Source: a bacterium (GTDB lineage: Bacteria > CLD3). Taken from it: 60,670 bases of DNA. Every line of letters starts with the position of its first letter. Position 1 is the first letter of the stretch. The notes under the pieces are model-generated. The model made no database searches. It worked only from the letters and a program-made list of their open reading frames with translations, and was not told the origin of the DNA. The position numbers and the translations under genes were made by a program. The stretch spans positions 1 to 60,670 of the forward strand of contig JADZEA010000103.1 in assembly GCA_020850775.1 (NCBI GenBank). Reading direction: 5' to 3'. Positions 6,097-59,500 of this stretch are shown here, piece by piece.

Positions 6097-6109
6097 GTAA
6101 TTTTTAAAG

Positions 6110-6132
6110 CTACTTCAGAAAAGTGGTTTTTT
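6110..6132 (+). terminator. Putative rho-independent terminator after the Trx-TPR gene
   Basis: ctactt-cagaa-aagtgg hairpin (one G-U pair) followed by tttttt. Confidence 0.4.
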
Positions 6133-6160
6133 ATTGTCATAAAAAATAGGAATTTTAAAA

Positions 6161-7402
6161 ATGAACTCGTATTTAATTTTTGTTTTAGCTGTCTTAATTT
6201 TTAGTGAAATCCTTGATTTGGCAACAAAAATTTTCAACCTGAAATCCTTGTTACCGGAACTCCCTGAAATTTTCAGAGATACTTTCGATGCTGAAAAATA
6301 CGAAAAATCCCAAAATTACACGAAAGTAACGACTAAGTTTTCAATCCTGAAATCTTTAATTTTAACTACTTTAACAATAGTTTTTATACTTTTGGGTGGT
6401 TTTAATTTTGTGGATAATTTTGCGAGAAGTTTTGAACTAAACTCAATTTTTACAGGTTTAATTTTTACAGGAACTCTAATTTTAATTTCATCAGTTTTGA
6501 GTTTGCCTTTCACACTTTACGGAACTTTTGTGATTGAGCAAAAATTTGGTTTTAACAAAACTACTGTAAAAACTTTCATTTCAGACCTTATTAAAGGGTT
6601 GATTTTAGGTGCTTTGATTGGTGGAATACTTTTGAGCATTGTTTTGTGGTTTTTTGAAACTTTTAAAGATTTAGCTTGGGTTTACGCCTGGGTTTCTTTT
6701 GAAATTGTCAGTTTATTTTTGACATTTTTAGCTCCAATTTTAATTATGCCTTTGTTCAACAAGTTTACTCCTTTGTCTGAAGGCAAGCTAAAAACAGCAA
6801 TTGAAACTTACGCAAAACAACAAAATTTTAAGTTACAAGGCATTTTTACGATGGATGGCTCAAAGCGTTCAAGCAAACTAAACGCATTTTTCACAGGTTT
6901 TGGAAAGTTTAGAAGAATTGTTTTTTATGATACTTTAATTGAAAAAATGACAACTGAAGAAATCATTTCAGTTCTTGCCCACGAAATGGGACACTACAAA
7001 CTAAAACACATCACAAAACGGATTTTCACTTCATTTTTAACGACAGGTTTAATGTTTTTTGTGCTTTCGCTTTTTCTGAACAACAAAGAACTTTTTGAGG
7101 CTTTCAAAATGGAAAACATTTCAGTTTACGGAAGTTTAGTATTTTTTGCGTTTCTTTACTCGCCAATAGAATTGATTTTGGGAATTTACGAAAATATTTC
7201 CTCACGCAAACACGAGTTTCAAGCTGATGCTTATTCTGTAACAAGCACAAAAACAATAGAAACAATGGTTTCAGCGTTGAAAAAACTTAGTGCTGAAAAT
7301 CTTTCAAACCTAACTCCTCACCCTTTTTATGTTTTTCTAAACTACTCTCACCCACCAGTTTTACAAAGAATTCAAGCAATTCAGGAAATCAAATTTTCTT
7401 AG
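6161..7402 (+). CDS. M48 family zinc metalloprotease, Ste24/CAAX-protease-like, multi-pass membrane protein
   Basis: Several N-terminal TM helices, HEXXH motif in VLAHEMGHYKLKH, downstream HEFQAD. Length and topology are typical of Ste24-type M48A. Confidence 0.8.
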   Translation: MNSYLIFVLAVLIFSEILDLATKIFNLKSLLPELPEIFRDTFDAEKYEKSQNYTKVTTKFSILKSLILTTLTIVFILLGGFNFVDNFARSFELNSIFTGLIFTGTLILISSVLSLPFTLYGTFVIEQKFGFNKTTVKTFISDLIKGLILGALIGGILLSIVLWFFETFKDLAWVYAWVSFEIVSLFLTFLAPILIMPLFNKFTPLSEGKLKTAIETYAKQQNFKLQGIFTMDGSKRSSKLNAFFTGFGKFRRIVFYDTLIEKMTTEEIISVLAHEMGHYKLKHITKRIFTSFLTTGLMFFVLSLFLNNKELFEAFKMENISVYGSLVFFAFLYSPIELILGIYENISSRKHEFQADAYSVTSTKTIETMVSALKKLSAENLSNLTPHPFYVFLNYSHPPVLQRIQAIQEIKFS

Positions 7403-40549: not shown

Positions 40550-43500
40550 TTATTTTAGTAAAACCATCTTCTGCGTCTTAACAAAACTGCCTGCTTCAAG
40601 CCTCGCAAAATAAATTCCGCTCGCTACACTTCTGCCTTTCGCATCCGTGCCGTTCCATTCAAAAACATGGTAAGCGGCTTCTAAATTTCCATTAACCAAA
40701 CTCTTTACAACCTGACCTAACGCATTGTAAATCGTCAGCTTAACAAAAGCCCTTGCAGGAATTCCAAACTTAATTTTTGTGTTTGGATTAAATGGATTTG
40801 GGTAGTTTTGCTCCAAACTGAAAGCCTTTGGAATTTCGTTTTCTCCATTTTCTATCGCATCGGTAACATCCGCAATTAAGTTTACAACGTAGTTTGGTGT
40901 TGCCGTTGTGTTGTTTGCGATTTCCAAAGTGCTTGTTAAATTTCCTATTGACATTGGAAAAACTGTCAGTTCAACCAACACTGAATCACCAACTCCAACC
41001 GTTAACGGGAAAGTCGGCTGATTTGTAAATTGTGCGTTTAATGGGTTTGTCGTTCCAAAAGTCATCCCCGAAATTGACAAAATCCCCGTTCCCGTGTTTT
41101 TGACTACTAAGTTCGCTGCAGAAGGTTGTGTTACCAAAATTACTCCAAAATTCACCTCGTTTGCAACAATGTTTGGTGTTCCCGTAGCAATTCCCGGCGT
41201 TGCCACAACAAGATTTCCGGGGTGCGATTCAAGGTTCGTTCCGTTCACGTCGTAAACTACTGTCGCTGCGTAAGAGTACTGGTTCGGATTCGTTACGCTA
41301 AAATCATCGTAATTTTGTGTCGTTCCTGTAAAAATTACTGAACCGTTTGTTACTACTTCTTCAGAATTTAAAGCAGCACCGTTTAGCTTGTAAAGTTTGT
41401 AGGAAACAATGTTCCAGCTTGGATTTAAATTGATTTCGTTTCCACCCTTTGAAAGTTTTTTTCCAAAAATTTCTGCTTTTGGTGAATTTACAACCGGAGC
41501 AACTACAGCCAAAGGTTCAACAAAGCAACGAATCATCGGAATTATTTGTCCATAAATTGGAGCAAGCGTTTCAATCGGTGCCCAGTTTCCACCTGTCCCC
41601 TGAATAAAATGAGTGTTCACGTTAAAAACGTAAGGCGGATTTAAGCTCGTGTCTCCTCCAAGTGAAATCGGGTCACTTCCAATCTGTTCAACTCCAATTC
41701 CAAAAGCACCACTTCCAATTGCAAATCCAATTCCCGTAACCGGGTTCACAAAATCAAAGTTTACAAAACTTCCTGAAGTTGTTTGTGTGAAAGGTCCAAG
41801 TTCCGTAAGTAAAGCTCCGGGAACGTTTGTTACTGTGTCCCAACCGTAAATTTTTACTTTGTAAGTTGAAGCAGGCAAAGCACCGTTATCAATAAAAACC
41901 TTAGCAGAGTTTAATTGTGCATTCCCTGAAATTTGCGTTTGAGTTGCGATGTCAAACTTACTTATAAAAATTGCTGGTCCCGGACTGTTTATTCCTGGTG
42001 GAGAGTTTGGTAAAATTGACTGAAATTCACTCGTTCCGTCATCGTACTTGATTTCAATTCCGTTTTCGCCAGGCTGTCCCCAAGCCAAAGGAATGTGGTT
42101 TGGAACAAGCGATTCCGCGTTCAAAGTTCCTGGTGGAATTAGCCTGATTTCAAAACTGTAAGGAGTTCCTGTTCCGTTTGTCGGGTTGTACGGAAAGTAA
42201 GCCGTGTTTTCGCCCGTGTCTGAGTCCGTTGCACTGATAAAATACTCAATCACTACGTCAAAAGCGTTTGGTGCAGGAATTTGAGCGTAAAACGAGTCGT
42301 TAGCCGCTGCGGTCATCGGAACGTTGTTCCAGGTTGTGTTGCTTGCAAGTTTCCAGAAAAGCTCAACGCTGTCCGCCTGAACTCCTGAAAGTGTGTCTGT
42401 AACTTTTGCCCAAACCGGGAAATTTTGGTTGTGAATGTCTGTGTCGTTTTGGTTGGTAAGGTTTACTACGCTTGGTGGAAAGTTGTCTTCAGAAGTAAAC
42501 CAGACTGCAAGTTGGTCTTGTAAAAAAACATCGTCGTTAATCACTTGCAAGCCATCAGTTGCGGCAAGATTTTCAATCCCGACTGAACAGAAAGTTGCAT
42601 CATTTTCATCAATGTCCAAGTACTGAAACTCAATCGTTCCGTCCTGCCACAAAATAATTTCCATCGTCATCGGAACGCTTCCACCGAAAGCTGGAACCTG
42701 ATTCCATTGAATAATTACACGCGGAAGGTTTGGGTCAGCGTAGTACCAAACTTGCCCACCTGAACCAGGATTCAAATCGTCCCAAAAAATTGAAATCATT
42801 CCGTTAGGTTGCTGAGCGTTTGGAAAAGCTAATCCACCGGGTCCACCAAGTGAACTGCTTCCTGCATCAAAATTTACGTAACCGTTTGAACCGATAAACA
42901 TCGTCGTGAAAGTATCGTTGTAAAGCGGAAAAGCCCAGGGCAACGTAACTTGTGAGAAAGAATCATCAGTTAAATTTTGGTTCTGTGAAGCGGGATTCGT
43001 TGAAACGTCAACAAAACTGAAAGAAACCGCTCCGTTTAAACTGCTGACCCACGTGTGTCCGTAAAGGTCAGGTCCGCCGGAAGCTGCAACGACGTTTGTT
43101 TGTGAACTTGCTGAAAGTGCGCTTTCGTTTCCTTCAACGTCCAAAGCCGTAACAAAGTAAAAATTCGCTCCGTTTGCAGGGTTGCCGTCTGTGTAAGTTT
43201 GGTTTGAAGAAGAAAGTGTCGTTAACAAAACCGGCGTTCCGAAAGCACTCGCTCCTCTGTAAACTTTGATTGAAGCAAGGTCGTTCAAAGGTGTTCCGTC
43301 TGCGTTTGTTGTTGGGTTCACCCAGGTAAGGTCAACTCCGTTACCTGTGTTTAATGTTGAAGTTAATCCAGTTGGTGAAGCCGGAGCTAAAACATCGTTT
43401 GGAGTTGCTGAAGCAATGTTTGAAGGTAAACTTTCAACAATTTGTCCGCTAACATTATCCACAAAAATTGAAGTTACAACGTAAAAATACTCTGTTCCGT

Positions 43501-46500
43501 TAGCCAAAACAGGGTCGTTATCCAGGTAACTGATAATTAATGGGCTTGTAGTTTGATTAATCTGGTAAGTTGCTGTTGGCGGAATCAGGTTTGAAGCAAG
43601 TGTTGAACGGTAAATTTTGTAAGAATTAAGACCGAGAGTTGCGATTTGGTTCGTGTTGTTTTTTCCGTTTGGAAGTGCTTTTTTCAGAAAATCATTTAAA
43701 CTAATCGGTTTAACGTTGATTTTTTGAGCATTTTTTACGACGTAAGAAGCGATGTTTTTACCTTTTTCAAGTTTATCGGCTTTTGGTGAGTTGCTAATTT
43801 TTTCAGCAATTCCGTTAAATCTTGCAAAAGCGCTTGTTTCCTTCGTCAAAATTTTAATCTGAGGAATAAAAGCAAGGTTCAGGCTTTCAAAACTTTGCCA
43901 GTTGTCCGTATTTTTTCCTGAAACAAAAAACGTGTTTGCAGGGATTTCACTTTGAACTTCGCTTGCAAGCGAAACAAGGTTTTCATCTTCCTGAGTTAAC
44001 ACTACAAAAAACTTTCCGTTTGAAAGCCTCACAGCCTCCTTTAGTGAAAATTTAATAGTTTCATTTTTTCCACTTGTAACTCCTTTGCCTAAAATTCCAA
44101 GCAGTTTTCCTGGTTTTTCTCCTGCACCAAAACCGTAAAGGCTGACCGTGTAGTTAGTTTTTACTCCTTCAAGAAAAGTGATTTCAACTGTTTCAAGACC
44201 TTTATTTTGTGCAAGGAAAAATTTTGTTGCAACGTTTCCGCTGGCATTGTTAAAACCAAAAGGAACGTTTCCGTTTGAAGTGTAAGCAAAAATATTTTGG
44301 TTTTGCTTGAACTGTGGAGCAACTACATTTGGAATTTGCCAGGTTAGCGGAACTGCTAAATCCACGTTGGAAGTTGCGACAAGGTTGTCTGGTGGAAGTG
44401 TTAAGCTAATTACAAAGGAGTGAACGTTTGTTGGAGCGTTTGTCGGGTGAGTCGTAACGTCTGAACTGTCGTCAATTGCAACAAGGTAGTACTCAACGTA
44501 AGTTCCGTTAGTTTGAGCCGGAATTTGAGCTGTGTAATTAATTCCTGTTGTGTTTGTCATCGGAACTTGTGTGTAAGTTCCCGTTGAATTAATTCTCCAG
44601 AACAAATCGGCTGAAATTACTGTTCCTGAATCAAAAATTTGTGCTGTTACGGTGTAAGGATTTGTAACGTTTGTTGTGTTTCCGAGCGGTGTGTGAGTGA
44701 TAAAAGGCGGAGCGTCAGCAGTGATTACAACAGACAAATTGCTTTGCAAAAACGGAGAGTTGTAAGCCACCTGAAGTCCGTCGGTTGCAGTTGAGTCTTC
44801 AATTCCAATCGTAGCTTCGGTGAGCGAAGTTGAGGTTAGTGTCTGGTAGTTGTAATCAATTTTGCCGTTAGGGTAAAGAATCATTTGGAAAGTGTTCAGG
44901 TTGGTTTGTTCGGCAAGTCTTGGAACGTTGTTCCACTGAATCACGAAACGGTTGTTGGCTGCGTCGTTGTAGTAGTAAATTTCGCCCGTTCCCTGGTTAA
45001 CAATTAAGTCGTCCCAAAATGCAAAAATACAATTTTCAGGGTCTCCGACAGTTGGAATTGGTTGATTCCAGTAAGGAGTGGCAACTGCCCCAAAAGTGAT
45101 GTAGCCGTTAGTAGAAACCTGGCAACTTGTGTAAGAATTTGTGTAAAAAGGAAAAGACCAGGGAAGGTTCAGAGCATCCTGATTGTCGTCTCCGTAAACA
45201 CCAAGTGCAGTTCCAAGCGTTGCAATGTTAAAAAATGTTGCCGGAATCGTTCCGCCGGTGCTGCTGAACCAAACGTGTCCGAAAGCATCCGGTCCGCCGG
45301 AATTTGCAACGACGTTACACTGCGAGGAAGTAGCGTAAGCTCCGACGTTTCCCGATAAATCAACGGCAGCGACTGTGTAGTAGTTTGCACCGTTCAGCGG
45401 AGAGTTGTCGGTGAAAGTTTGGTTTGGAGCAGTTACGTTTCCAAGCAAAGTAAAATTTAAATTATCCGCACTTCTTAAAACATTGATTGAAGCAAGGTCG
45501 GTTAAAACTGTTCCGTCTGCGTTTAAAGTTGGGTTAACCCAAGTGATGTCAATTGTTCCGTTAGTATTCAAATTGCAGGCAACGTTTGAAGCAGTTCCTG
45601 GTGGAGTGATGTCTCCGCTGAGAGTGTTTACAGTAGAAAAATCACTTACAGTCGGGTCGCCGGCAGAAGTTGCGGTAACAGTTGCAACGTCTGTAAAACC
45701 AATCGGTGTGCCGGCAGGAACAGAAACTTGCACGTTAAAAACAAGGTTTGCACCTGCACTGATGTTTCCCGTGTTGGTAATCTGGTTTCCGTTGAGCCAA
45801 AAAGTAGTCGGGAAAGTGTTACCCGAAACTGACAGGTTGTAAGAATCACTTAAAGCTCCGTAGTTGTAAGCAGTCAGGTTGTAATTTACGTTACTTGTTG
45901 GAAGTGCGTTACCGTTAAGTGTTTGCGGAGCAAGTAAAACCACATAATTTTGTGGCGGTCCGGCAGTGTAGTGAATTGTACCGTTCCAAATTCTTGGTTG
46001 AAACGTACCGGCAAAAGGATAAGCTACTCCGTAACCTTCCTTGATTTGCAAGTTTGTGTCAGACACGTAAACATTGCCGACAGCGGTTCCGTTTGTGTAG
46101 TTCATCATCGTACCTTGAGCGGTACTCGTGATGTAAAACCCGTAAGTCTGACCTGGCTGCAAAGCCAGATTCAAGTTTACAGGAAGCGGTGTCGGAGCGT
46201 TTGCAGCAGTTGCTGTTGCTGTCGTGGTTGCAATTAAAGTCCACGCTGCCAGTGTTGTGTCAAACCCGACAATCGTTCCGGTTTTGTAATAAATTTCGAT
46301 GGTCTGTGTGCCGATTGCAAGATTACAGTCAAAACCTGTAATTACAACCTGGTTAAGCGTGGTAACATCAAACATATTTCCGGATTGACCGTTCCCACCA
46401 ACGTAAGTAGTTGTCAAATCCAAGACTTGAGCACCAACGTTAATGCTAAAAACTGCTGTAAAAAGAAGTGCTGAAATTCCTTTTACTTTCAAATAGTTTT

Positions 46501-46504
46501 TCAT
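40550..46504 (-). CDS. 1,984-aa T9SS-secreted multi-domain surface protein (FN3/Ig-like modules, internal ~410-aa duplication)
   Basis: Signal peptide MKNYLKVKGISALLFTAVFSINVGAQ. Thr/Asn/Gly-rich beta modules. FN3-like TWVNPT.NADGT...Y.V.A.D..GN. T9SS CTD at the end: NYPNPFNPNTKIKFGI...SGIYFARLEAGSFVKTQKMVLLK. Confidence 0.85.
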   Translation of the reverse strand: MKNYLKVKGISALLFTAVFSINVGAQVLDLTTTYVGGNGQSGNMFDVTTLNQVVITGFDCNLAIGTQTIEIYYKTGTIVGFDTTLAAWTLIATTTATATAANAPTPLPVNLNLALQPGQTYGFYITSTAQGTMMNYTNGTAVGNVYVSDTNLQIKEGYGVAYPFAGTFQPRIWNGTIHYTAGPPQNYVVLLAPQTLNGNALPTSNVNYNLTAYNYGALSDSYNLSVSGNTFPTTFWLNGNQITNTGNISAGANLVFNVQVSVPAGTPIGFTDVATVTATSAGDPTVSDFSTVNTLSGDITPPGTASNVACNLNTNGTIDITWVNPTLNADGTVLTDLASINVLRSADNLNFTLLGNVTAPNQTFTDNSPLNGANYYTVAAVDLSGNVGAYATSSQCNVVANSGGPDAFGHVWFSSTGGTIPATFFNIATLGTALGVYGDDNQDALNLPWSFPFYTNSYTSCQVSTNGYITFGAVATPYWNQPIPTVGDPENCIFAFWDDLIVNQGTGEIYYYNDAANNRFVIQWNNVPRLAEQTNLNTFQMILYPNGKIDYNYQTLTSTSLTEATIGIEDSTATDGLQVAYNSPFLQSNLSVVITADAPPFITHTPLGNTTNVTNPYTVTAQIFDSGTVISADLFWRINSTGTYTQVPMTNTTGINYTAQIPAQTNGTYVEYYLVAIDDSSDVTTHPTNAPTNVHSFVISLTLPPDNLVATSNVDLAVPLTWQIPNVVAPQFKQNQNIFAYTSNGNVPFGFNNASGNVATKFFLAQNKGLETVEITFLEGVKTNYTVSLYGFGAGEKPGKLLGILGKGVTSGKNETIKFSLKEAVRLSNGKFFVVLTQEDENLVSLASEVQSEIPANTFFVSGKNTDNWQSFESLNLAFIPQIKILTKETSAFARFNGIAEKISNSPKADKLEKGKNIASYVVKNAQKINVKPISLNDFLKKALPNGKNNTNQIATLGLNSYKIYRSTLASNLIPPTATYQINQTTSPLIISYLDNDPVLANGTEYFYVVTSIFVDNVSGQIVESLPSNIASATPNDVLAPASPTGLTSTLNTGNGVDLTWVNPTTNADGTPLNDLASIKVYRGASAFGTPVLLTTLSSSNQTYTDGNPANGANFYFVTALDVEGNESALSASSQTNVVAASGGPDLYGHTWVSSLNGAVSFSFVDVSTNPASQNQNLTDDSFSQVTLPWAFPLYNDTFTTMFIGSNGYVNFDAGSSSLGGPGGLAFPNAQQPNGMISIFWDDLNPGSGGQVWYYADPNLPRVIIQWNQVPAFGGSVPMTMEIILWQDGTIEFQYLDIDENDATFCSVGIENLAATDGLQVINDDVFLQDQLAVWFTSEDNFPPSVVNLTNQNDTDIHNQNFPVWAKVTDTLSGVQADSVELFWKLASNTTWNNVPMTAAANDSFYAQIPAPNAFDVVIEYFISATDSDTGENTAYFPYNPTNGTGTPYSFEIRLIPPGTLNAESLVPNHIPLAWGQPGENGIEIKYDDGTSEFQSILPNSPPGINSPGPAIFISKFDIATQTQISGNAQLNSAKVFIDNGALPASTYKVKIYGWDTVTNVPGALLTELGPFTQTTSGSFVNFDFVNPVTGIGFAIGSGAFGIGVEQIGSDPISLGGDTSLNPPYVFNVNTHFIQGTGGNWAPIETLAPIYGQIIPMIRCFVEPLAVVAPVVNSPKAEIFGKKLSKGGNEINLNPSWNIVSYKLYKLNGAALNSEEVVTNGSVIFTGTTQNYDDFSVTNPNQYSYAATVVYDVNGTNLESHPGNLVVATPGIATGTPNIVANEVNFGVILVTQPSAANLVVKNTGTGILSISGMTFGTTNPLNAQFTNQPTFPLTVGVGDSVLVELTVFPMSIGNLTSTLEIANNTTATPNYVVNLIADVTDAIENGENEIPKAFSLEQNYPNPFNPNTKIKFGIPARAFVKLTIYNALGQVVKSLVNGNLEAAYHVFEWNGTDAKGRSVASGIYFARLEAGSFVKTQKMVLLK
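42140..43393 (-). repeat. Internal protein-module repeat, copy 2 (aa ~1038-1455)
   Basis: LAPASPTGLTSTLNTGNGVDLTWVNPTTNADGTPLNDLASIKVYR...NGANFYFVTALDVEGN...ASGGPDLYGHTWVSS...LPWAFPLY...GSNGYVNF...SIFWDDL...IQWNQVP...VGIENLAATDGLQV...VELFWKL...VPMT...FYAQIPAP...EYFISATDS. Colinear with copy 1. Confidence 0.7.
44390..45613 (-). repeat. Internal protein-module repeat, copy 1 (aa ~298-705 of the surface protein)
   Basis: ITPPGTASNVACNLNTNGTIDITWVNPTLNADGTVLTDLASINVLR...NGANYYTVAAVDLSGN...NSGGPDAFGHVWFSS...LPWSFPFY...STNGYITF...FAFWDDL...IQWNNVP...IGIEDSTATDGLQV...ADLFWRI...VPMT...YTAQIPAQ...EYYLVAIDD. Confidence 0.7.
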
Positions 46505-46545: not shown

Positions 46546-48021
46546 TTACAAAACATTTTTACTTGAGTGGAAGTTTTTATTTCCAATTCCGACGTTTACG
46601 TTTCTAAATCTTGTCGGAGAACTTCCGTGAGACATTTCGGCAATTTGCATTGGCTGACCTTTTCCGCAGTTGTGAACGCCCCAAAGTGTCCAGTAATTTT
46701 CGTTACAAATTGCATCACAGGAATTCCAAAACTCAGGTGTAATTCCCTGGTAAGAACAGTTTTTCAGCATCGCACCTTTTTTACCGTTTTTGATTTCCCA
46801 ACCGATTTCAGTCCCGAACTCAAAATTCAGCCTCCACTGGTCAATGCTCCAGCACTTGTTTGTTTCCATAAAAATCCCTTCTTCCGTGTCTGAAACTAAG
46901 TTTTCAAATTCCCAATCTCCCGGCATTAAACTAAGGTTTGTAATCCTGACGATTGGAATGTTGCTCCAACCTTGAGCACGATTGTTTCCGCTGGATTCTT
47001 CGGCACCGATTTCGTGAGCTGTTTCTCTGTTGAACTGGTAACCAACTAAAATTCCGTCTTTTACCAAATGCCAACGTTTAGCACGAACTCCGTCGTCGTC
47101 GTAACCGATTGTAGCAAGCCCGTTTGGAACTGTTGAATCACAAACTAAATTTACAATTTCCGAACCGTAGCGAAAGTTGTTCAGTTTTTCGGTTGTCGCA
47201 AAACTCATTCCTGCGTAGTTTGCTTCCATTCCCAAAACTCTGTCAAGTTCCGTAGCGTGTCCGACAGATTCGTGGATTTGCAAAGCCATTTGGGTGCCGT
47301 CAAGAATTACATCTTTTTTACCTTCCGGACATTCTTTTGCTGTTAAAAGTGCGATTGCTTCTTCGCGGACACGTTCAGCATTTTCCAAAAGCGAAAGCCC
47401 CGGAATCAGTTCGTAACCCATTGACATAAATTGTCCGCGGAAAGAATTTGGGAAAGAGCGAATTTGAACGTCGTTGTTTCCGATTGCAGTTGCAGAGTAA
47501 CCGACGCCGCTACGCATTAATTTTTGGTCAATAAAAGTTCCTTCCGAAGTTGCAAGCCACTGATGTTCACAAGTAAAATCCATTCCGATAACAGTTCGTT
47601 TAATCAGTTCTGACTTTCGTAAAACTTCGTCAATTTTGTGCATCAAAGCGAGTTTTTCATAAATCGGAACTGTAAAAGGGTCAATCAAAAAAGGAGTTTG
47701 CCATTTTTCGTTGTAAACAGGTTCTTTGACGAGTTTTACGTTTTGTTTTTTTAGTAGTGAGCTTGCTTTTGCGATTTTTACGGCAAGCGTAGAAATTCTT
47801 TGGATTTCTTCGTTTGTAAGAAGGTTAGAGCTTGCAAATCCCCAGGAACCGTTTGCAATCACTCTAACTCCAAAACCAATATTTTCGCTTGAGCTTGTTT
47901 CAGTAACTTTTCCTGTAGTAATTTCAAGCCCTTCATTTTTTGTCAAAATAATTCTGATGTCTGCGTAAGTTGCACCGAGTTTTGTCGCTGTGTCAAGTGC
48001 AAGTTGTGTGTAGTGTTTCAT
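46546..48021 (-). CDS. tldD: TldD metalloprotease
   Basis: HESVGHATELD metal-binding motif. TldD-type N-terminus MKHYTQLALDTATKLGATYADIRI. I placed the start at ATG 48021; the track ORF extends 23 codons further and overlaps the upstream gene. Confidence 0.9.
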   Translation of the reverse strand: MKHYTQLALDTATKLGATYADIRIILTKNEGLEITTGKVTETSSSENIGFGVRVIANGSWGFASSNLLTNEEIQRISTLAVKIAKASSLLKKQNVKLVKEPVYNEKWQTPFLIDPFTVPIYEKLALMHKIDEVLRKSELIKRTVIGMDFTCEHQWLATSEGTFIDQKLMRSGVGYSATAIGNNDVQIRSFPNSFRGQFMSMGYELIPGLSLLENAERVREEAIALLTAKECPEGKKDVILDGTQMALQIHESVGHATELDRVLGMEANYAGMSFATTEKLNNFRYGSEIVNLVCDSTVPNGLATIGYDDDGVRAKRWHLVKDGILVGYQFNRETAHEIGAEESSGNNRAQGWSNIPIVRITNLSLMPGDWEFENLVSDTEEGIFMETNKCWSIDQWRLNFEFGTEIGWEIKNGKKGAMLKNCSYQGITPEFWNSCDAICNENYWTLWGVHNCGKGQPMQIAEMSHGSSPTRFRNVNVGIGNKNFHSSKNVL

Positions 48022-48035
48022 TTTAAAAAAACTTC

Positions 48036-48674
48036 CTAAAGTATGATTTTTTTTTGAGCTAAAGCTAATTTCAAATTTTCCGCAAAACAATAAAAAGACT
48101 TTTTTACGTTGTAAAAATTTTGTGTTGGAAAACCGTCTGCAACAAGACCAAGCATAATTTTTGTGTTTTTTTCTCCGCTTCCGGCAAACTTGATTTTGCC
48201 GATTTCGTCAAGTTTTTCCAAGTAAGACTCTGACGATAAAACTTGTTCAAGTTTCTTTTGTGAAGAAGTTTCAATTTCACTAAGTTTATTTGAAAGTTCT
48301 TTTTTGTTTGCACAACACCAATTTTCAATTGCACTGCAAGGTATCATTTCTGCGAATCTGTTTTTTATGTTTTTTCTAATTTTTAGAATAATTTTATTGT
48401 TTGTTATGAAAATTTGAAAATTATTGAATTTTTCATCTGCATCAATGTGAAAGCAAAAAATACAATCTTTTTCTGTCTTTAAAGTTGCTAAAGCATACTG
48501 AATGAAATCATTGAGTTTAGTTTGATTAAAGATGTCGGAACCTAAAACATCTTTAAAAATTTCTTCAAACTCTGCCTGTTCCTGCCCTAAAAATTCTAAA
48601 GCAAGTTCAATAAATTTTTGTGTAACTTTTTGAGATGTTTTATCTTCTGTAAAAAAATAAATTTTCAATTCCAA
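48036..48674 (-). CDS. Small (~210 aa) protein, TOPRIM-like/DUF4276-like candidate nuclease partner of the upstream ATPase
   Basis: TTG starts at 48674 or 48668; the latter has GGAG 7 nt upstream and overlaps the ATPase TGA as TTGA. N-terminal strand plus acidic residues KIYFFTEDKT, later CIFCFHIDADE (DxD-like), then IPCSAIENW and a C-terminal KKSFYCFAENL. The family assignment is from memory of the pattern, not a search. Confidence 0.5.
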   Translation of the reverse strand: MELKIYFFTEDKTSQKVTQKFIELALEFLGQEQAEFEEIFKDVLGSDIFNQTKLNDFIQYALATLKTEKDCIFCFHIDADEKFNNFQIFITNNKIILKIRKNIKNRFAEMIPCSAIENWCCANKKELSNKLSEIETSSQKKLEQVLSSESYLEKLDEIGKIKFAGSGEKNTKIMLGLVADGFPTQNFYNVKKSFYCFAENLKLALAQKKIIL

Positions 48675-49915
48675 ACTCCGTCATAAAACAGAACATTAGC
48701 TAAAGAAATAATTTCAGTTTCAACCTTTTTAAAAACTTTTTCTAAATCTTTTCCTTTCAAATTTGAGAAAGCAAGTTTTTCGTTTGTACCAATTTTACAA
48801 AGCACAACCGATTTACCGAGTTCTTCCATTGAAACATATTTTAAATTATTGATAATATTATGGCTATGAGTAGTGATGAAAGCCTGTTTTTTTTGCTCGT
48901 AAATTTTCTTCAACAAATCTTCAACCATTTTAGGATGAAAGCCATTTTCAATTTCATCAATCAAAGGGATTTCGTTAAGCTCAACCTTGCTCAACAAGTA
49001 AACAAAGCGTTTTTGTCCCCAGGTCAGAACGTTATCAATTTTAATTTCCCTTTCTTTTTTTAAAAAAATACATTTTCCATCTCTAAATTTTCTGGATTTC
49101 ATAGAAATTTGGCTGCTACCAAAACTAATTTTGTAACTATCAAAAAATGGATAATCTTTACTAATTTTTTCTAAAAAGGAACTTTTAAATTCTAATTTAA
49201 GATTGAGAGGTTCTCTAAAATCTTTTGGCGGTCCTTGTTTATTAATAAAATCAGTTAAATCTTTAAGAATAATAAAACTAAATTCATTCATTTCTGCCTG
49301 GTTTTCTGTACCAGACCATTTTTCTTGTAATAAATTATTTTCAAAAGGAATGCTTCCTTTTTCAAAAAAATAAATAGTGAATGTTTTAATATTTTTCTCA
49401 AATAACAACTTTGTTTCAGAATTGTCTTCAACACCTCTTCCACAAAATTGCGGGAATTTTAAAAATTTCAATTGAGCAAAAACCTCATTGCTCAAATCTC
49501 TTAAAATATTTTGCAAATTAAAATCAATGCCTAAAGCAATCACGTTACCAACTAAATTTTCTCCATTTTTTAAAATCTTAAAGTTTTGTCCATTTTTTTC
49601 AATTGAAATTTTATCGTTTTCAATAGTGAAATTAATTGAAAAATCTAATTTCTCTCTCTTTGCCATAAAATTAGCTTCAAAATTTCCATTTTCCAACTCC
49701 CCTTTTGTCCTAAAATGAAAATCATTTTTTTCTTTCAGTTCATTAAAATTAAACGAAACACAAGCCTGCAAAATTTTTAGCAAAGTAGTTTTTCCACCAC
49801 CGTTTGGACCAATCAGTAAATTTATTCCTTCACCAAATTTTAACTTTTGGTTAACGATGATTTCATCTCCGTAATCGTTTGTAAAATTAATAATTTCAAG
49901 TTCTTCTAAAAACAT
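48665..49915 (-). CDS. ABC/SMC-type ATPase of the AAA_21/OLD-like class (no transmembrane or nuclease domain)
   Basis: Walker A LIGPNGGGKTTLL, long insertion, signature-like LTWGQKRFVYLL, Walker B IPLIDEIENGFHP, H-loop FITTHSHNI. ATG 49915 lies 4 nt after the pmbA stop and is preceded by AGGTAAGGG. Confidence 0.8.
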   Translation of the reverse strand: MFLEELEIINFTNDYGDEIIVNQKLKFGEGINLLIGPNGGGKTTLLKILQACVSFNFNELKEKNDFHFRTKGELENGNFEANFMAKREKLDFSINFTIENDKISIEKNGQNFKILKNGENLVGNVIALGIDFNLQNILRDLSNEVFAQLKFLKFPQFCGRGVEDNSETKLLFEKNIKTFTIYFFEKGSIPFENNLLQEKWSGTENQAEMNEFSFIILKDLTDFINKQGPPKDFREPLNLKLEFKSSFLEKISKDYPFFDSYKISFGSSQISMKSRKFRDGKCIFLKKEREIKIDNVLTWGQKRFVYLLSKVELNEIPLIDEIENGFHPKMVEDLLKKIYEQKKQAFITTHSHNIINNLKYVSMEELGKSVVLCKIGTNEKLAFSNLKGKDLEKVFKKVETEIISLANVLFYDGVWN

Positions 49916-49919
49916 TCCC

Positions 49920-51251
49920 TTACCTTTCAGTTTTGCTTGAAAAATGAAAATTTTTTACCTTGGCAGCAGGACAAACTAAACTTCCGTTTGCAAAAAAAAC
50001 TTCCTTTGACAAAAGCTCTACATTGTTCAAAACCCTGACCATACTGTCGGTAAAACGTAAATTTTTTACAGGTTTTGTGATTTTTCCGTTTTCTACAAGC
50101 CAAAGTCCGTCTCTTGTCATTCCTGTCAAAATCAAATTAAAATGGTCAAGCGTGTTCGTGTAGTGAAAATGAGTTACCAAAAGCCCGCGTTCCGTTGTCT
50201 CAATCATTTCCTGCAAACTTGAATTTCCACCATAAAATTTAACACTCGTTGGAAAAGGTCCCGCATTGTTTGGAAAAGGCAAAGCGTGTCCTGTTGACTT
50301 CGTTTGCATTTTTTGGGCGGTGTAACGGTCCTGAACCATCTCTTTTGCAACGCCTTTTTCAACTAATTTTACAGTTTTTTTAGGCATTCCTTCAAAATCA
50401 AAAGAAGTTCCCGGAAAAATTTCATCGTAAGGGTCTTCAAAAACCGTAACGTTTTCACCAAAAATTTTTTCTCCGAGTTTCCCACTCAAAAAACTTCTGT
50501 TTTCAAGAAAAGCCAAAGTTCCAAAAGCATTCCAGTTCAAGTAGCCTAAAATGTTTGCAAAAGCTGTTGGCTCAAGAATCACGTCGTAATCGCCTGCGTC
50601 AATGCTTTGCGGGTTTTGGCTACTCAAACATTTTTGAATTGCCGTTTCAGTTGTTTCCTGTAGTTTAATTTTTGAAACATCGTGAGCAGTTGAGTTTGCC
50701 CAACCGTAACTCGTTTCGGAATTAGTCGTCAGAGAAAATTCTGCGTTGGTTTTGTTGTGAAAGGCAAAGACGCCGTTTGAGTTTGCAACGCCAAAATTTG
50801 TGCTTGTTGTGGAAAAAATTCCCGCTGCCTGCAAACCTTTTGCTTGTGTTTTTCCAACTGAAAAAGCAATTGCTTCAGCACGTTCTTCCGGTGAAAAAGT
50901 CGCTGTGTTTTTGTAAAAAGAATGCGGAATTTTTTGGTAAACCTGTTTTTGCGGAAGTGGTAAAAAATCATCGTGTTCTTTTGAAAGCTCTAAAATTTCC
51001 ATCCCTTTTTTAATTGCAGTTTGGATTGTCTGGTCGTCAAAAGAATTTACGTCAACACGATTTGTTTTGCCATTTTTCACGAGTAAAATTGAAACCGAAT
51101 CACTTTTTTTTACAACATTTTGAGTAATAAAGTTGTTAGAAAACCTTGTTAGTGAATTTTCAAAATTTAAGTAAGAAATTTCTGTTTCTTCAGCGGGAGA
51201 ATTTTTTTTGATTTTTTCAGCTAACTCTGAAAATTTTTCTTCTGTAAGCAT
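49920..51251 (-). CDS. pmbA: PmbA/TldE, the TldD-partner protease subunit
   Basis: TldD/PmbA-family layout without the HExxxH motif. Conserved C-terminal block GLLVTHFHYTNTLD...TGMTRDGLWLVENGKI...NLRF. Confidence 0.85.
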   Translation of the reverse strand: MLTEEKFSELAEKIKKNSPAEETEISYLNFENSLTRFSNNFITQNVVKKSDSVSILLVKNGKTNRVDVNSFDDQTIQTAIKKGMEILELSKEHDDFLPLPQKQVYQKIPHSFYKNTATFSPEERAEAIAFSVGKTQAKGLQAAGIFSTTSTNFGVANSNGVFAFHNKTNAEFSLTTNSETSYGWANSTAHDVSKIKLQETTETAIQKCLSSQNPQSIDAGDYDVILEPTAFANILGYLNWNAFGTLAFLENRSFLSGKLGEKIFGENVTVFEDPYDEIFPGTSFDFEGMPKKTVKLVEKGVAKEMVQDRYTAQKMQTKSTGHALPFPNNAGPFPTSVKFYGGNSSLQEMIETTERGLLVTHFHYTNTLDHFNLILTGMTRDGLWLVENGKITKPVKNLRFTDSMVRVLNNVELLSKEVFFANGSLVCPAAKVKNFHFSSKTER

Positions 51252-53578: not shown

Positions 53579-56500
53579 ATGAAAATTAAAGATATTAGTC
53601 AGTATCGGACTTTCTACAAAGAGGAAGTAAACGGACACGGTGCAAACCGTGACGAACACTTTATTGGTGTAACTCACACAGACGGAGAAAATAAAAAGTG
53701 GGGATTTTTCAGCATTACTCATGGCGACAAGGAGAAACTTCAAACTGACGGCATCAGAGGATTTCTTGAAGGGTTTCTTGACATGGCAAGAGATGCACAG
53801 GCAGTTTATGAGTTTCTGCAAAACTCTGTTGATGCAAACAGCAGCAGGTTTGCAATGTTTTGGGGCAAAGACGAGCTTGATGGCAACGAATATTTACTTG
53901 TTCTCAACAATGGAAAACAATTTGACTTTGCTGCAGTTCGTTCAATCCTAAATGTTGGAGTTTCTACCAAGAACGCAGAGGAACACACAATCGGAAAGTT
54001 TGGAATTGGTTTCAAGTTGGCTCACAGATTAGTTGGTAAAGATAACGGACTTGATGAACTACTAAATAAAAATTATGGACCTATTTTATTCAGCTGGAAA
54101 AACTCAGAACTGAAAACCCTTTTTAATTTGAACGGTGAGGAGATTCAGCCAATTAAACAGAAATACAATCTTTCAAAAAATCAAGAATGGGAAATATCAG
54201 GAAATGAACCCTGGTTGTTCAAAATTTTAATCACAAATTTTCCGTGTCAACCCAATGAAAAAACCATAAAGGACATACAATACAATGAAATCGCTCCTCC
54301 ATTTGCCTTAGAAGAAATAAAAGTCCTTTCAAGATGGTTGAACAAATATTCTTCTGAGATTCCTGTGGAGGAATTTCAAGAAGGTTCTTTGTTTTTTATT
54401 CGCTTAGGTGAGGACAAGAAAAATCATTTGCAAGATGCAAATCTCAAAGAGGGTTTGAGATTTTCCCTTTCTGTTTTGAATCACACATCGCAACTCAACA
54501 CAAGAGGTTTAAAACACATGAACCTTAACAAAGAGGAACTTGAAAGTGTTGATTTGAAATTTTTGCCTTTCACCATTTCAAAGGAAAAGGACAAGGACAA
54601 ATATAATTGGATTCGTTTCGGAAAGACCGAAAACCTTTCGGAAGATGAATTGAAGTTGGCTGAGAAAGATTCAGACATTCAATTCCTGATGGGTTATTCA
54701 GACTTTGAAAAAGCAGAAGAAATATTTAACAATGCACCAAACTTCTATTTGTATTTTCCTTTGAGTGAGGAAAAACACAATCTAAAGTTCATTATTCATT
54801 CAAATGCTTTCTACAAGGCAACGCACAGAACTTCGTTGCACATTGGAAGTCAGGAAAAATTTGGCATTAACGAGCGACTGCTTTACACATTCGCAAAAAA
54901 AACTCTTACAGATTATCTTACCACTTGTGCAACTTCAATAAAGGAAGCAGACAAAGAAATATTCAAAGAGGTTTATGCAAACTTGCTTCTTTCAGATGAA
55001 AGCAAAGAGCCAAACCGACATTGGGTAAACAAACCATTGGTTGAACCGATTCATAAATTCTTAAAGGAAAATATTCCTGTAAAGTCAAATGAAGGATTTG
55101 AGTTAGTAAGTGATTCCAGCAAAGTCAAAATCAAGACAACAAAAATTCCGATTGATTTAAACGACCTTCATTGGTTTTATTGGAGCGACAACAAAATTTT
55201 GGAATTACCAGCCATAACCAAGTTAGGAATTTCAACTTTTTCAATAGTTGACTTTCTAAAAACACCAAAGGCATTTTCAGAAATCAACAAATTTATTGGT
55301 AGCAAAAGTGAAAACGCTTTTGCTACACTTACTGAAATTGACATTGCCATTGTTAGCGAAAAGTCAGAGGAGGTTTTGAAAGAAAATTTGTCAAAGATTA
55401 AAGTGTTTGAATTTGAGGATGGGCAATTTTTAAGCATTGATGATTTAAAAACGAATGCTGAATATTCCTCTCACTTAATTCAATTCAGTAAGATTGATGA
55501 AATTTCTATTGAATTACGAAAAGCAGGTTTCATTCTTTCTAAATGTTCGCTTTCACAATACGAATCGCTTTACAAGTTTCTTAACAGTGTTCAGATACTT
55601 GAATATTTTGAATCGGCTGAGTTGATTAAATTGCTCAGTAGTGGTTTTGAGAAAACACATTTCTTAATTGAGGAAAAGAAGAAAATATTTGCGACATTAG
55701 AAGCACCAAACAGAAATGAAAATGCCGAGACAAGGAACAAGCGAATGAAACTTCTGAGATTGTTCAACAACAAACTTGGTTACACAGTTGAACTTGGACA
55801 GTTGATTAAAGACACGCAAAAATCGTGGCTAAAAACTTTCTGCATTGACGAGAAGGAACACTTTGAAGAATTAGACAGATACTTAGTTCCAGACGACAAA
55901 ACAGTTTTTACAAGTATTGTAATTCCATTGTGGGATAAATTCACAGAAGATAAGACAGGAACCATCAGAAGTAATCCTTCAGACTTCTTTGCGGAGATTG
56001 TAAAACTTCAACAAGAAACCAATCAAAAAGAAACGCTTTCAAACAGAAAGCACATTTTGATTGACAACAAATTTCACGAAGCAAGCGAAGAAATATTTTA
56101 CTCTTCTGATTTGAATTCTTTGTCTGACGAAGATTACAAAAAGGCAGAAGATTTATTTGCAAAATATTTTCAGAAAAAATTTCCCGACAAAAGAACGCTG
56201 CCCTTTCTGAATCAACAACCGTTTCTTTTGCAGGTTTCCGGTTTGACAAAATTGAACTTGTTGTCAGAAACAGAAATCACTTCTGACAAAGTTGAAACTT
56301 TGGCAAAAGCATTTGCGACAGCAAAGCTTGAATTGTTTGAGAAATTTATTTTGCAACCCAAAGAAGCAAAAATAATTTTCAGACCAATTTCAGAGAATGA
56401 AAAACAAATCGGCAACTTACAGTCAGACGACTTGAAAAAATATGTTTCAAAGAATCATTCTGAATTGGTTGTTGCACCAACAATAAAATCGCTGAGTGAT

Positions 56501-59500
56501 TTCATCTATTTAAAAGACAGTGAACTTTCAAAATATTTAATCACTGAATTTGATTTCAAAGATGAAAGCAGAAAACATTCGCTTTGCGGAATTATTTTGT
56601 CTGAGGACGACAATGTAAAATTTGAGTTCATCAGCAAGCATCCGAATCTCACTGTAGAACAAGAAGACGAAAATTCAGTTAGTCAGTTAAGCGATATTGT
56701 AAAAACAGCTTTGTTTATTAGCGATGGACAAAAGGCAACTGAGATTTTAACTTCAAAAATTCTATTCAAGACAGCTGAAGGAAAAACATTTTCTCTTAAC
56801 AACCTTCAAGGATTAAACGCAAACAATATTTATTTTGGAGAGAACAACGAACACAGTATTCAACTTTCTGAATTGTTTAAGCAAGACGACTTGAACAAAG
56901 TTGCTTTTGTAGAAAAAGTTTTGGAATCACTTTCTGAAATTATTTCTATTGAGAAACCAAAGCTCCTTTCACTTTTCAATCTCAGCAATGAAGCCGATAA
57001 GAAAGATATTTTTCACAAGCTGAACGCTGACTACAAAACAAACGGACACCTTTCAAATGCTGCACAACTTGCTTTCATTCTTCTTTACAGAAAATTTGCT
57101 GACGAAAACATTTCAGTAAAAAGTTTCAAGATTAAGTCAGGCGAAACAACTCAAAGCATTGACGGCAGTTTTGGAATTTCAGTTTCAGATTTCGGTTTGT
57201 TTAAAAGTGAATGTTACTTACCCCAAGAATTTTCGGGCATAAAAGACATTCTCAAACTCTCTTCAAACAAACCAGTATTTGAAGTTGACAACACAAAACT
57301 TTATTTGCATCCTCTTGTTGTTGGCAGTTCATTTTCAAGTCCGCAGTTAAAGGAAGGATTGAGTGAAGATGAACAGATTGAACTTCTTGATTTCTTAGCT
57401 ACAAACTTTAAAGGGAATGAAATTTTACAATTCAACCAAAGTTGGGAAAATGTATTCGGCATTCTTTTAAATGACAAAGTTATTTCACGCCACCGCCTAT
57501 CACCTGTTGAAGATTTGCCAGAACATTTGGCAAGATGGAGGATAGACAAAAACGATGAAAGACGAAGGACTAAAGCACAGGTTCTAACTGCAATAGGAAT
57601 TCACACAAGAATATCTGAGATACATAAGTTGAGAAGGTTTTTGATTGAAAACAACACTAATGAAACTTTTGAATTGAAAGAGATAGAAAAAATTTCCGTT
57701 CAACTTTTGGCAAACACACTTCAAGTGTGTAAAAATTATAATTCAGATTTTTCTTTTGGTTTTTCTGACAAACCATTTGAAATTATTAAAGAAATTACAA
57801 GAAAAGTTTTGATTCAAAACTTAACAACTTATCCTTTGCCCGTATTGAATCAAGAATTGAAATACTCTTTGGAAATTCTAAATGCTAATCAGGATTATTA
57901 TTTGGACTTCACCGCAAGTCAAAATATTTCTTCAAATAGCGTTGACAAATCCGAGTTGGTAAAATCAATTCCTCAAAACATTTATGACGCAATTCTATTT
58001 GTTGATTCTCCTGAATTAAAATCCATTCTGAAAAAGGTTGAAATAATTCCTGTTACCGATTTTGAAAAACTTGAAACGCTTTCGCAAGAATGGAATGAAA
58101 AATTTTATTTGGAATGGAAAGAAAAGCATCCCACTTTGAAAATAAATCTTGTGGATTTTATTCCCATCAGACTTTATGTAGGCGATAATTATATTCAAAA
58201 TTCTGAAAGTCATGAAATTATTAGAAACGAGAATGTCCTTTTTATCTCAAAAAAGCATTCTTTTGAAGAAATAAAATTTCAGATTAACGAAAGGGGATTG
58301 CTTACAGAATCTGAACTGAATGAACTTACGACATTGTTTGAGCACTATCAAATACAGTTTAGAGAATTATTTGAGAACTATATTGCAGATGATGAAATTA
58401 GAAATAAACTTGAAGCGATAAAAAAAGAAGCAGCACAATTAGCACAAAAGAAAGAACTTAAAGAAAGCTTGTGTAAGGAGAAATATACTTATAAATGGTT
58501 TACCGATTTCTTAGAACTTGAGCTAATAAATAATTCAGAAGCAGATTCAACTTCACCTGAAAAGGAAATTTCATTTTTCGCTGCTGCAAAGGAAGAAGAT
58601 TCTGAAAGAATAATTATCCTTCGTGACCCAAACAGAACTGTTACCCCAACCTTAGAATTTTGTGCTGATTTTCATGCAAAGTTTTATAGAGATACAGGAA
58701 GTCCTATTGATGTGAAAATTCAAGGCGTTTCAAAAAAGGGGCAAACTGTTTTAGCAATTCTTGCAAATCCAAATGACTTACGAGGCATTGACCTTAAGAA
58801 TGAAATTAAGAGGGTAGAACTTTTGTTTTCCCGTTCAGTTGATTTGCTGCGAAGATTATTAAACTCTTTCAAGAGATTAGGTGATAACAATCATTGGGAT
58901 CCAAAGTTCAGTATCAAAGATAATTTAACAGAGAACATTAAATTCATTTTTGGACCGCCAGGAACAGGAAAAACAACAACAATTGCAAATCGTGCAATTG
59001 AAATAATGCAGAATGTTCCACAAGCAAAAATTCTAATTCTTACACCGACCAACAAAGCAGCAGATGTTGTTGCTCATAAAATTTTTACCAATTCAAGAGA
59101 CGACAATGATTGGCTTGTCCGCTATGGTGCAACATTTAATGAGGAGTTGATTCAAAACGAAATTTTGAAAGATGCCAATTCGTTTTTCTTTTCTGATTAC
59201 AGCAGATGCACGGTTGTAGCAACGATTCAAAGATTCCCTTACGAGGAATTCATTGATAAAATTGTTTCGGAACAGGAAATCAAAATCCGAATGTGCGATG
59301 CTGATTGGGATTACATAATTTTTGATGAGGCATCAATGATTCCGGTTACTTACATTGCTTTTGGTCTGATGAAGTGTTTTGAAAAAACAGTTGGTTCACA
59401 AACGAAATTTTTAATTGGTGGCGACCCGAAACAAATTCCACCAGTGATAACAATTTCAGATGAAGATTTGCCAGCCGATTTTGAGAAGGAAGAAAATATT

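Follow-up and report, generated by a model that had tools for sequence, protein, structure and literature searches.

Between the protease genes pmbA and tldD of an uncultured CLD3 bacterium (assembly GCA_020850775.1, contig JADZEA010000103.1) lie two additional genes on the same strand, encoding a 416-amino-acid (aa) ATP-binding cassette (ABC) ATPase and a 210-aa partner protein. The window, as used here, is the whole of the analyzed stretch, 60,670 nucleotides (nt) in length, and the two genes together are termed the cassette. With a probability of roughly 0.6, we consider the pair to be a self-contained conflict module consisting of an ATPase and an effector, inserted at a hotspot formed by the pmbA|tldD junction and probably independent of the TldD/E protease. 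From motifs, genomic context and analogy with characterized systems we infer a defence role for the pair, a sensor role for an insert in the ATPase and a nuclease activity for the partner.

Organization of the locus

The four genes are arranged on the minus strand in the order pmbA, ATPase, 210-aa open reading frame (ORF) and tldD. This order, the coordinates and the junctions had been described in an initial annotation made from the sequence alone, and all were reproduced here. The features of the block, in window coordinates, are as follows:

49920..51251, minus strand: pmbA (tldE), first gene of the four-gene block; Pfam PmbA_TldD_3rd, 2.3e-51
49916..49919, minus strand: 4-nt spacer GGGA, from the TAA of pmbA to the ATG of the ATPase
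48665..49915, minus strand: ABC ATPase, 416 aa, class AAA_21/AAA_15, predicted sensor or regulator subunit; Pfam AAA_21, 4.5e-14
48036..48668, minus strand: small partner, 210 aa, of an orphan family, predicted effector and possibly a metal-dependent nuclease; gene call P0001
48022..48035, minus strand: 14-nt spacer GAAGTTTTTTTAAA from the partner TAG to the tldD ATG, with AGGAAG upstream
46546..48021, minus strand: tldD, counted from its ATG; Pfam PmbA_TldD first, second and third domains

The ATPase TGA overlaps the TTG start of the partner as TTGA (a 4-nt overlap), with GGAG 7 nt upstream. An alternative, longer bound for the small ORF is 48036..48674. As the partner homologues begin with M-K-I/V-F right at the ATPase stop, the TTG at 48668, already proposed in the initial annotation, is the correct start and the protein is 210 aa long. 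No terminator-like site was found on the coding strand within the four-gene block, and promoter-like matches in the block showed no excess (20, compared with a shuffled expectation of 13 +/- 4). For the flanking PmbA/TldD genes, the Pfam C-terminal domain is matched with E-values of 2.3e-51 and 5.8e-35, and the zinc motif HESVGH (HExxxH type) is intact in the TldD translation.

Distribution of the cassette and origin by insertion

To place the cassette in its phylogenetic setting, TldD was scanned in one genome per species across 185,579 species, the best 80 loci were kept, and PmbA, the ATPase and the partner were located by tblastn. Among these 80 loci, the cassette was found in CLD3 only. 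Only three genomes, all from a single Calditrichota clade, carry it at the pmbA|tldD junction, namely the window, Calditrichaeota MAG (metagenome-assembled genome) CLD3 (locus L001) and GCA_964351555.1 (locus L005). L001 and L005 present the order pmbA, ATPase, 228-232-aa partner and tldD, with spacers of 8, 0 and 24 nt. Identity between the window and L001 is 80-82% for TldD, 62% for PmbA, 46-52% for the ATPase and 38-45% for the partner, the values being method-dependent. The outer neighbours are unlike those of the window, and the four genes therefore travel as a block.

In 16 loci, pmbA ends 15-69 nt before tldD, while seven loci hold the cassette or other cargo. On a neighbour-joining tree of TldD, the sister group of the cassette clade includes both empty sites (L010, L017, L020) and cargo-bearing ones, and the more distant outgroups have an empty junction at which pmbA abuts tldD. 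These empty outgroups indicate that the adjacency of pmbA and tldD is ancestral and that the cassette is a derived insertion. The comparison of loci thus supports insertion at the junction, rather than an ancestral operon order. The initial annotation had reasoned that universal conservation of the four-gene order in the lineage would argue for an integral accessory of TldD/E; the order was found conserved within the three-genome clade and fails immediately outside it.

Two further loci carry the pair in other surroundings. In L006 the pair is free-standing, with an ATPase 37-40% and a partner 47% identical to those of the window, and is accompanied by neither pmbA nor tldD; its flanks consist of 173 nt upstream without an ORF in any frame and a GC-rich hairpin followed by a T-run downstream. 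L007 contains a distant pair with overlapping stop and start, adjoining an AbiEii-type nucleotidyltransferase. When L007 was compared with the window by hhalign, the partner was matched at 97.4% (E 1.3e-11) and the C-terminal half of the ATPase, including its terminal G-[VIL]-W, at 99.2% (E 2.1e-19). At all five loci, the ATPase stop and the partner start abut or overlap. The pair is no higher in GC than its surroundings in L006 and L007, and is clearly lower than its neighbours in L007; for L006, a 2.2-kb contig that is mostly the pair itself, this comparison is limited.

The pmbA|tldD junction as a defence hotspot

Three genomes of the sister clade (L014, L019 and L012; 84-89% mutual TldD identity) contain three different cargos at the junction, all co-oriented. 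In L014 (Ca. Hatepunaea meridiana, JAVCDD010000334.1, 2373-6827), DarG (PADLOC 9.6e-136) lies between pmbA and tldD, together with a CAP12/Pycsar-type TIR protein, PDC-S35 (5.8e-79), a 446-aa protein of no known family and a ParE toxin. The cargo of L019 (4448-6874) comprises a RhuM-family PDC-S05 (1.8e-148) and a eukaryotic-type Ser/Thr kinase resembling PD-T4-6/mad6, and that of L012 a 278-aa protein of no known family and a 441-aa homologue (5536-6861) of the 446-aa protein of L014. Upstream of tldD in an uncultured Caldithrix (L009, 765-6761) are a GmrSD-type restriction endonuclease, a BACON-domain protein and a MazF/PemK toxin; pmbA was not found within 7 kb of this tldD. No integrase domain was found among the cargo ORFs scanned.

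Two other loci should be mentioned here. In Caldithrix abyssi (L018), housekeeping genes (biotin carboxylase, RF2) precede tldD. In L065, a 430-aa FGE-sulfatase/SUMF1-like protein (5593-6885) lies between pmbA and tldD, so not all of the cargo is obviously related to defence.

Core defence hotspots are bounded by conserved genes, as exemplified by the core defence hotspots (cDHS) of P. aeruginosa (PMC10250203), and exchange at such sites is thought to use flanking homology (PMC10250203, PMC5635113). The junction is alike in having conserved flanking core genes, variable cargo rich in defence and toxin-antitoxin (TA) genes, and empty sites in relatives, all seen here in a small sample, and it is alike also in the turnover of cargo between close relatives without integrase or att repeats. 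It differs in that the site is a junction of about 15-70 nt inside a two-gene operon for one heterodimeric enzyme, and in that the cargo is all co-oriented, with near-zero spacers in the window clade. Judged by its gene content, the pmbA|tldD junction of these lineages acts as a hotspot for defence genes. One of the two proposals in the initial annotation, that a defence-type module had hitch-hiked into the operon, is supported by the empty outgroup sites, the other defence cargo at the junction and the free-standing pairs.

Class and motifs of the ATPase

The ATPase carries the motifs of an ABC protein in the expected order, with an insert between the two lobes:

49784..49810, minus strand: Walker A GPNGGGKTT, residues 36-44, kept in homologues
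49196..49729, minus strand: hypervariable middle insert, residues 63-240 (about 180 aa), predicted trigger-recognition region
49007..49024, minus strand: ABC signature-like TWGQKR, residues 298-303, invariant in 4 homologues
48932..48967, minus strand: Walker B/D-loop PLIDEIENGFHP, residues 317-328, invariant in 4 homologues
48860..48874, minus strand: H-loop TTHSH, residues 348-352, invariant in 4 homologues

These motifs had been read from the translation at the outset and are present as quoted. The AAA_21 model is matched at 53.7 bits (gathering cut-off 27), the match extending over protein residues 31-355 and 1-303 of the 304 profile positions; the AAA_15 score of 29.4 is slightly under the cut-off of 32.1. 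In PADLOC the best matches are all defence ATPases, namely PDC-M25A (4.5e-16), AriA (1.5e-15) and AbiLi (5e-14), followed by GajA, PtuA and mad3 (4.3e-12). The closest solved structures in a profile search of the PDB are AriA (7.5e-8) and PtuA (8.5e-7), the latter from Septu and retron Ec78. The proposed membership in the soluble AAA_21/AAA_15 ABC class, of the OLD/PARIS/AbiL type, can thus be regarded as established at the sequence level by Pfam, PADLOC and the PDB profile search. Three proteins, P0003-P0005, are real homologues of the ATPase; two weaker matches, P0006 and P0008, proved to be prophage ATPases that stand alone. The ORF stops at residue 416, no further domain follows the ABC fold, and Pfam gives no Toprim_OLD match.

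The ATPases of the family all end in G-[V/I/L]-W, to which the window protein adds N, with G413 and W415 invariant. The corresponding codons (window 48665-48673, L001 9330-9338, L007 1441-1449) lie at, or overlap, the partner start codon. This terminal motif could be a docking motif for the partner.

The ATPase insert and evolutionary rates

The middle insert is only 21-29% identical in every pairwise comparison, including that of L001 with L005, compared with 63-81% for the N-lobe and 53-82% for the C-lobe. L001 and L005 have nearly identical flanking proteins (PmbA 97%, TldD 98%). At the DNA level, identity over the flanks is 86-97%, mostly >=90%. It falls to 63% in the first 100 nt at the pmbA/ATPase junction and rebounds to 82%, is 35-54% across the middle of the ATPase gene and 66-85% over the C-lobe and the partner, and climbs again to 96% as tldD begins. 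Synonymous divergence (dS) between the two loci rises from 0.43-0.47 in the flanks to 1.06 in the partner gene and to about 1.9 in the ATPase gene. Contrary to the relationships of the flanks, the ATPase of L001 is closer to that of the window (52% identity) than to that of L005 (48%). The high dS and the discordant relationships of the ATPase suggest that alleles were replaced at the locus or recombined into mosaics; relaxed constraint alone would not produce such a pattern. The ratio of nonsynonymous to synonymous divergence (dN/dS) is 0.16-0.50 over both cassette genes, and purifying selection maintains the ATPase and the partner.

By analogy, the insert is the probable specificity determinant. 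In PARIS, AriB is kept sequestered by AriA, whose insertion beside the nucleotide-binding domain has been proposed to recognize the trigger (PMC11464382).

The ATPase gene of L005 appears truncated. Decay was considered as an explanation and rejected, as the scaffold contains a run of N, upstream of which the Walker A region is still to be found; this gap, at about 1560-1580 of L005 and inside the ATPase gene, accounts for the shortened 360-aa gene call P0004.

The small partner protein

The partner family consists of five members, the window protein and 4 relatives, found among 1.84e9 representatives by HMMER and in 5.8e9 clusters by profile search. No further relatives were found in JGI metagenome contigs or IMG/VR with the partner and ATPase profiles, nor in PLSDB plasmids by tblastn, and neither these nor a word-indexed search took the total beyond five loci. 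The partner is a real gene, conserved at four other loci with dN/dS of 0.16-0.38. It has no match in Pfam, PADLOC (E<=1), NCBIfam, PHROGs or the PDB sequences, PARIS entries included; the other family members, each scanned on its own at E<=10, gave none either, and the A3 profile likewise matches no PDB sequence. In particular, the Pfam models for DUF4276 (PF14103), RloB (PF13707), DUF4435 (PF14491) and Toprim match none of the five members at E<=10, where the HMMER filters drop most matches above about 0.1. The hidden Markov model (HMM) searches suggested in the initial annotation thus placed the ATPase above the AAA_21 cut-off and returned no family for the partner.

Three conserved motifs of the partner lie at these positions:

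48642..48656, minus strand: partner motif 1, FFTED, with E8 and D9, which are invariant in alignments A1 and A4
48435..48458, minus strand: partner motif 2, FCFHIDAD, with H74, D76 and an acidic residue 78; F71, F73, H74 and D76 do not vary, and 5 of 5 have D or E at position 78
48306..48341, minus strand: partner motif 3, PCSAIENWCCAN, with C111, E115, W117 and N121, invariant in 5 of 5

Across the five members the patterns are [FY]-F-T-E-D, F-x-F-H-x-D-x-[D/E] and C-x3-E-x-W-x3-N. Further invariant motifs are D-E-I-x3-K and, at the C-terminus, F-P-x4-Y-x3-K-S-F. For the distant member P0014, the N-terminus can be aligned only ambiguously.

Structure prediction was of low confidence. AlphaFold2 gave a mean predicted local distance difference test (pLDDT) of 39.7 with the window protein first in a 4-sequence alignment, and a pLDDT of 47.2 and predicted TM-score (pTM) of 0.43 with P0014 first in a 5-sequence alignment. 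In these low-confidence models, a predicted first strand (residues 2-7) precedes E8-D9 and a predicted strand at 69-74 precedes D76-x-[D/E]78. Foldseek, run with the better of the two models against the PDB, found no Toprim fold and only weak Rossmann-like fragments (best E 0.47, TM 0.19). DUF4276 and RloB Toprim-like domains have a conserved Glu after strand 1 and a DxD after strand 3 (PMC12065111). The fold of this superfamily has three alpha/beta layers and the sheet order 2-1-3-4. The partner's succession of strand-E/D, strand-DxD and E-x-W resembles these domains in order only, its invariant acidic motifs would fit an E...DxD centre, and a TOPRIM/DUF4276 label is a hypothesis suggested by this succession.

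Comparison with known systems

A soluble AAA_15/21 ABC ATPase with a small separate effector is the design of PARIS (AriA/AriB), AbiL, MADS (MAD3/MAD4) and Septu. PARIS shares with the cassette two co-oriented, tightly coupled genes, an AAA_15/21 ABC ATPase of about 50 kDa with a smaller partner, and a variable insertion between the ABC lobes, which in AriA is the proposed trigger sensor (PMC11464382). However, AriA matches only the Walker B/H-loop segment of the window ATPase: the best stretch of the PADLOC AriA model covers residues 304-356 only, and the PDB AriA match covers profile positions 318-369 only. The window partner has 210 aa, compared with about 300 aa in PARIS, and shows no DUF4435, AriB or Toprim match in Pfam, PADLOC or the PDB. 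PARIS is typically carried by P4-like satellites and prophages, whereas the cassette lies within a chromosomal protease operon.

The AbiL and RloA-RloB pairs have the same two-gene architecture, and the AbiLi model covers most of the ATPase (5e-14, residues 33-358), but the partner has no AbiLii or RloB (PF13707) match. For MADS, MAD3 is the best NCBIfam match of the ATPase (PADLOC mad3 4.3e-12), although its 31.1 bits lie far below the equivalog cut-off of 420; PtuA, too, is far below its NCBIfam cut-off. MAD4 is a DUF4276 protein, a stand-alone Toprim-like type of about 200 aa (PMC12065111), whose pattern resembles the FFTED...HIDAD of the partner. DUF4276 nevertheless matches 0 of the 5 partners at E<=10, and the methyltransferase and other MADS components are not nearby. 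PDC-M25A is the best PADLOC match of the window ATPase (4.5e-16) and the second best of the L007 ATPase (1.1e-15), but the former match is partial (residues 241-359), and the partner matches no PADLOC model, that of the second PDC-M25 component included. OLD-family nucleases (class 1/2, such as P2 Old and GajA) differ in having ATPase and Toprim nuclease fused in one polypeptide; here the ATPase is encoded on its own, and the GajA matches are confined to the ATPase motifs.

Composition and neighbouring genes

By eye, the cassette had been judged more AT-rich than its flanks, and the computed values agree. GC is 0.273 and 0.280 in the cassette genes, compared with 0.367 in pmbA and 0.409 in tldD, and both cassette genes have the lowest GC among the 30 large ORFs of the window. 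With a mean of 0.349 and a standard deviation of 0.031 for the other 28, the cassette genes lie at z = -2.5 and -2.3; GC at third codon positions is 0.218, compared with a mean of 0.289. The AT-richness is real but modest. We rejected low GC as proof of recent transfer: the L001 cassette is equally AT-rich though resident since the common ancestor, so its AT bias is a stable trait.

A search of the window for insertion scars found no meaningful repeats, direct or inverted, around the cassette. An exact 13-nt direct repeat, AAAAAAACTTCCT, roughly brackets it at 48025-48037 and 49993-50005, one copy at the tldD ribosome-binding region and the other within the 3' end of pmbA. It was considered as an att site and rejected, as chance alone would give roughly one match of this kind in such AT-rich DNA.

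A 1984-aa secreted repeat protein (40550-46504, minus strand) lies directly downstream of tldD, and its C-terminal tail resembles a type IX secretion sorting domain. On the opposite side of the four-gene block, L001 has a Por_Secre_tail protein. A second defence gene of the window, a 2280-aa ORF at 53579-60421 on the plus strand, lies about 2.3 kb from pmbA. It matches Tiamat TmtA (PADLOC 5.4e-194, residues 1-1655) and combines an N-terminal GHKL/sacsin-like ATPase with a C-terminal superfamily 1 helicase that matches Mokosh MkoA (9e-39).

Proposed mechanism and alternative explanations

We propose that a conflict module of the anti-phage or abortive-infection type entered the pmbA|tldD junction in the lineage ancestral to a small group of Calditrichota and would now be co-transcribed with, and translationally coupled to, the protease genes. 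The ATPase would dimerize via its ABC lobes, and its hypervariable insert of about 180 residues may recognize a phage-derived trigger. Until such a trigger appears, the ATPase would keep the partner inactive; the partner, with its invariant E-D, H-x-D-x-[D/E] and E-x-W, would then be released or activated as a toxic effector, most plausibly a metal-dependent nuclease.

Several observations weigh against this proposal and should be considered. The partner is without detectable homology to known effector, Toprim, DUF4276, DUF4435 or RloB models, and the term nuclease is suggested by its conserved acidic and histidine motifs only. The matches of the ATPase to named defence ATPases are partial, mainly to the Walker A and Walker B/H-loop segments; being also far below the NCBIfam cut-offs, they show the class and not a named system. 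The spacers in the window clade (4-24 nt) are much tighter than those of the other cargos at the junction (54-257 nt), and the cassette is kept in all three genomes of the clade although the outer flanks are rearranged; a functional tie to the operon would predict both tight spacers and retention. Finally, the context statistics are thin, with five loci only, and all hosts are uncultured MAGs.

The pair may instead be a selfish module of the toxin-antitoxin or addiction type that plays no part against phages, in which the partner is the toxin and the ATPase the antitoxin, or the reverse. We consider this unlikely. Such a module would persist because a position inside an operon hampers clean loss, as an imprecise deletion would sever tldD from its promoter. 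Pfam describes AAA_21 as an 'AbiEii/type IV TA'-associated ATPase domain, PDB depositors label AriA an 'antitoxin', ParE and MazF are found at the hotspot, and an AbiEii-type nucleotidyltransferase lies beside the L007 pair. The combination of a hypervariable insert with conserved lobes, however, suggests a changing external target rather than a fixed toxin. The boundary between TA and abortive infection is moreover blurred, and the two explanations therefore overlap.

That the partner is a mostly helical adaptor or regulator, and neither nuclease nor Toprim, with the ATPase or an unlinked host factor acting as effector, also has a low probability in our estimation. Both AlphaFold2 models are mainly helical with two short strands each, none of the five members matches a nuclease or Toprim model, and Foldseek returned no Toprim. 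Yet these models are below usable confidence and thus little informative, whereas the invariant E8, D9, H74, D76, D/E78 and E115 are of the types expected of a metal center and follow two predicted strands in a Toprim-like order (PMC12065111). In characterized systems, furthermore, the small separate partners of AAA_15/21 ATPases are effectors (PMC11464382).

A functional tie to TldD/E, the second proposal of the initial annotation, would make the ATPase and the partner lineage-specific accessory subunits of TldD/TldE, perhaps a factor that uses ATP for substrate delivery or gating. The two protease subunits form a heterodimer that breaks down unfolded peptides and is linked to the turnover of CcdA (PMC5810440), so a substrate-feeding partner is conceivable. 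The close packing of the genes (spacers of 4 and 14 nt and an overlap), within which no terminator was found, is in line with such a tie, as is the retention of the order in three genomes at 80-82% TldD and 62% PmbA identity with differing outer neighbours; three of the four close homologous pairs lie at the pmbA|tldD junction. We nonetheless consider it improbable. Homologous pairs stand free in L006 and L007, pmbA and tldD are direct neighbours in the nearest outgroups, and the junction of the sister clade holds unrelated, bona fide defence and toxin genes. The hypervariable insert and a cassette dS 2-4 times that of the flanks between near-identical genomes are what conflict genes typically show, unlike a housekeeping accessory, and TldD and PmbA show no unusual change, HESVGH being intact.

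Escherichia coli TldD/E degrades CcdA and the microcin B17 leader, and the junction might accordingly be pictured as an adaptive 'expression slot', with defence and toxin cargo co-expressed with and functionally buffered by a TldD/E that may degrade unfolded antitoxin, effector or trigger peptide, and with near-zero spacers that would mark a cassette turned ATP-dependent partner of the protease, but we hold this to be very unlikely.

Implications

The design of the pair as a conflict module is already known; the orphan partner family and the operon-internal hotspot are new variations on it. The value of the finding is moderate, as it opens no long-standing question and the hosts are uncultured. 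For specialists, the placement of the hotspot and the extreme rarity of the partner family are noteworthy, although not paradigm-changing.

If the proposed reading is true, an orphan effector family, with five members in about 5.8 billion clusters, joins the defence pairs driven by ABC ATPases and offers clear candidate catalytic residues for mutation, while the comparison of near-identical genomes singles out the ATPase insert of about 180 residues as the likely specificity determinant. Defence islands are usually pictured between operons or at tRNA genes. The present locus would mean that a defence hotspot can also sit inside a two-gene housekeeping operon, with its cargo co-oriented and, in one clade, translationally coupled, and such an operon-internal placement would suggest a route by which cargo may gain constitutive expression and resistance to deletion.

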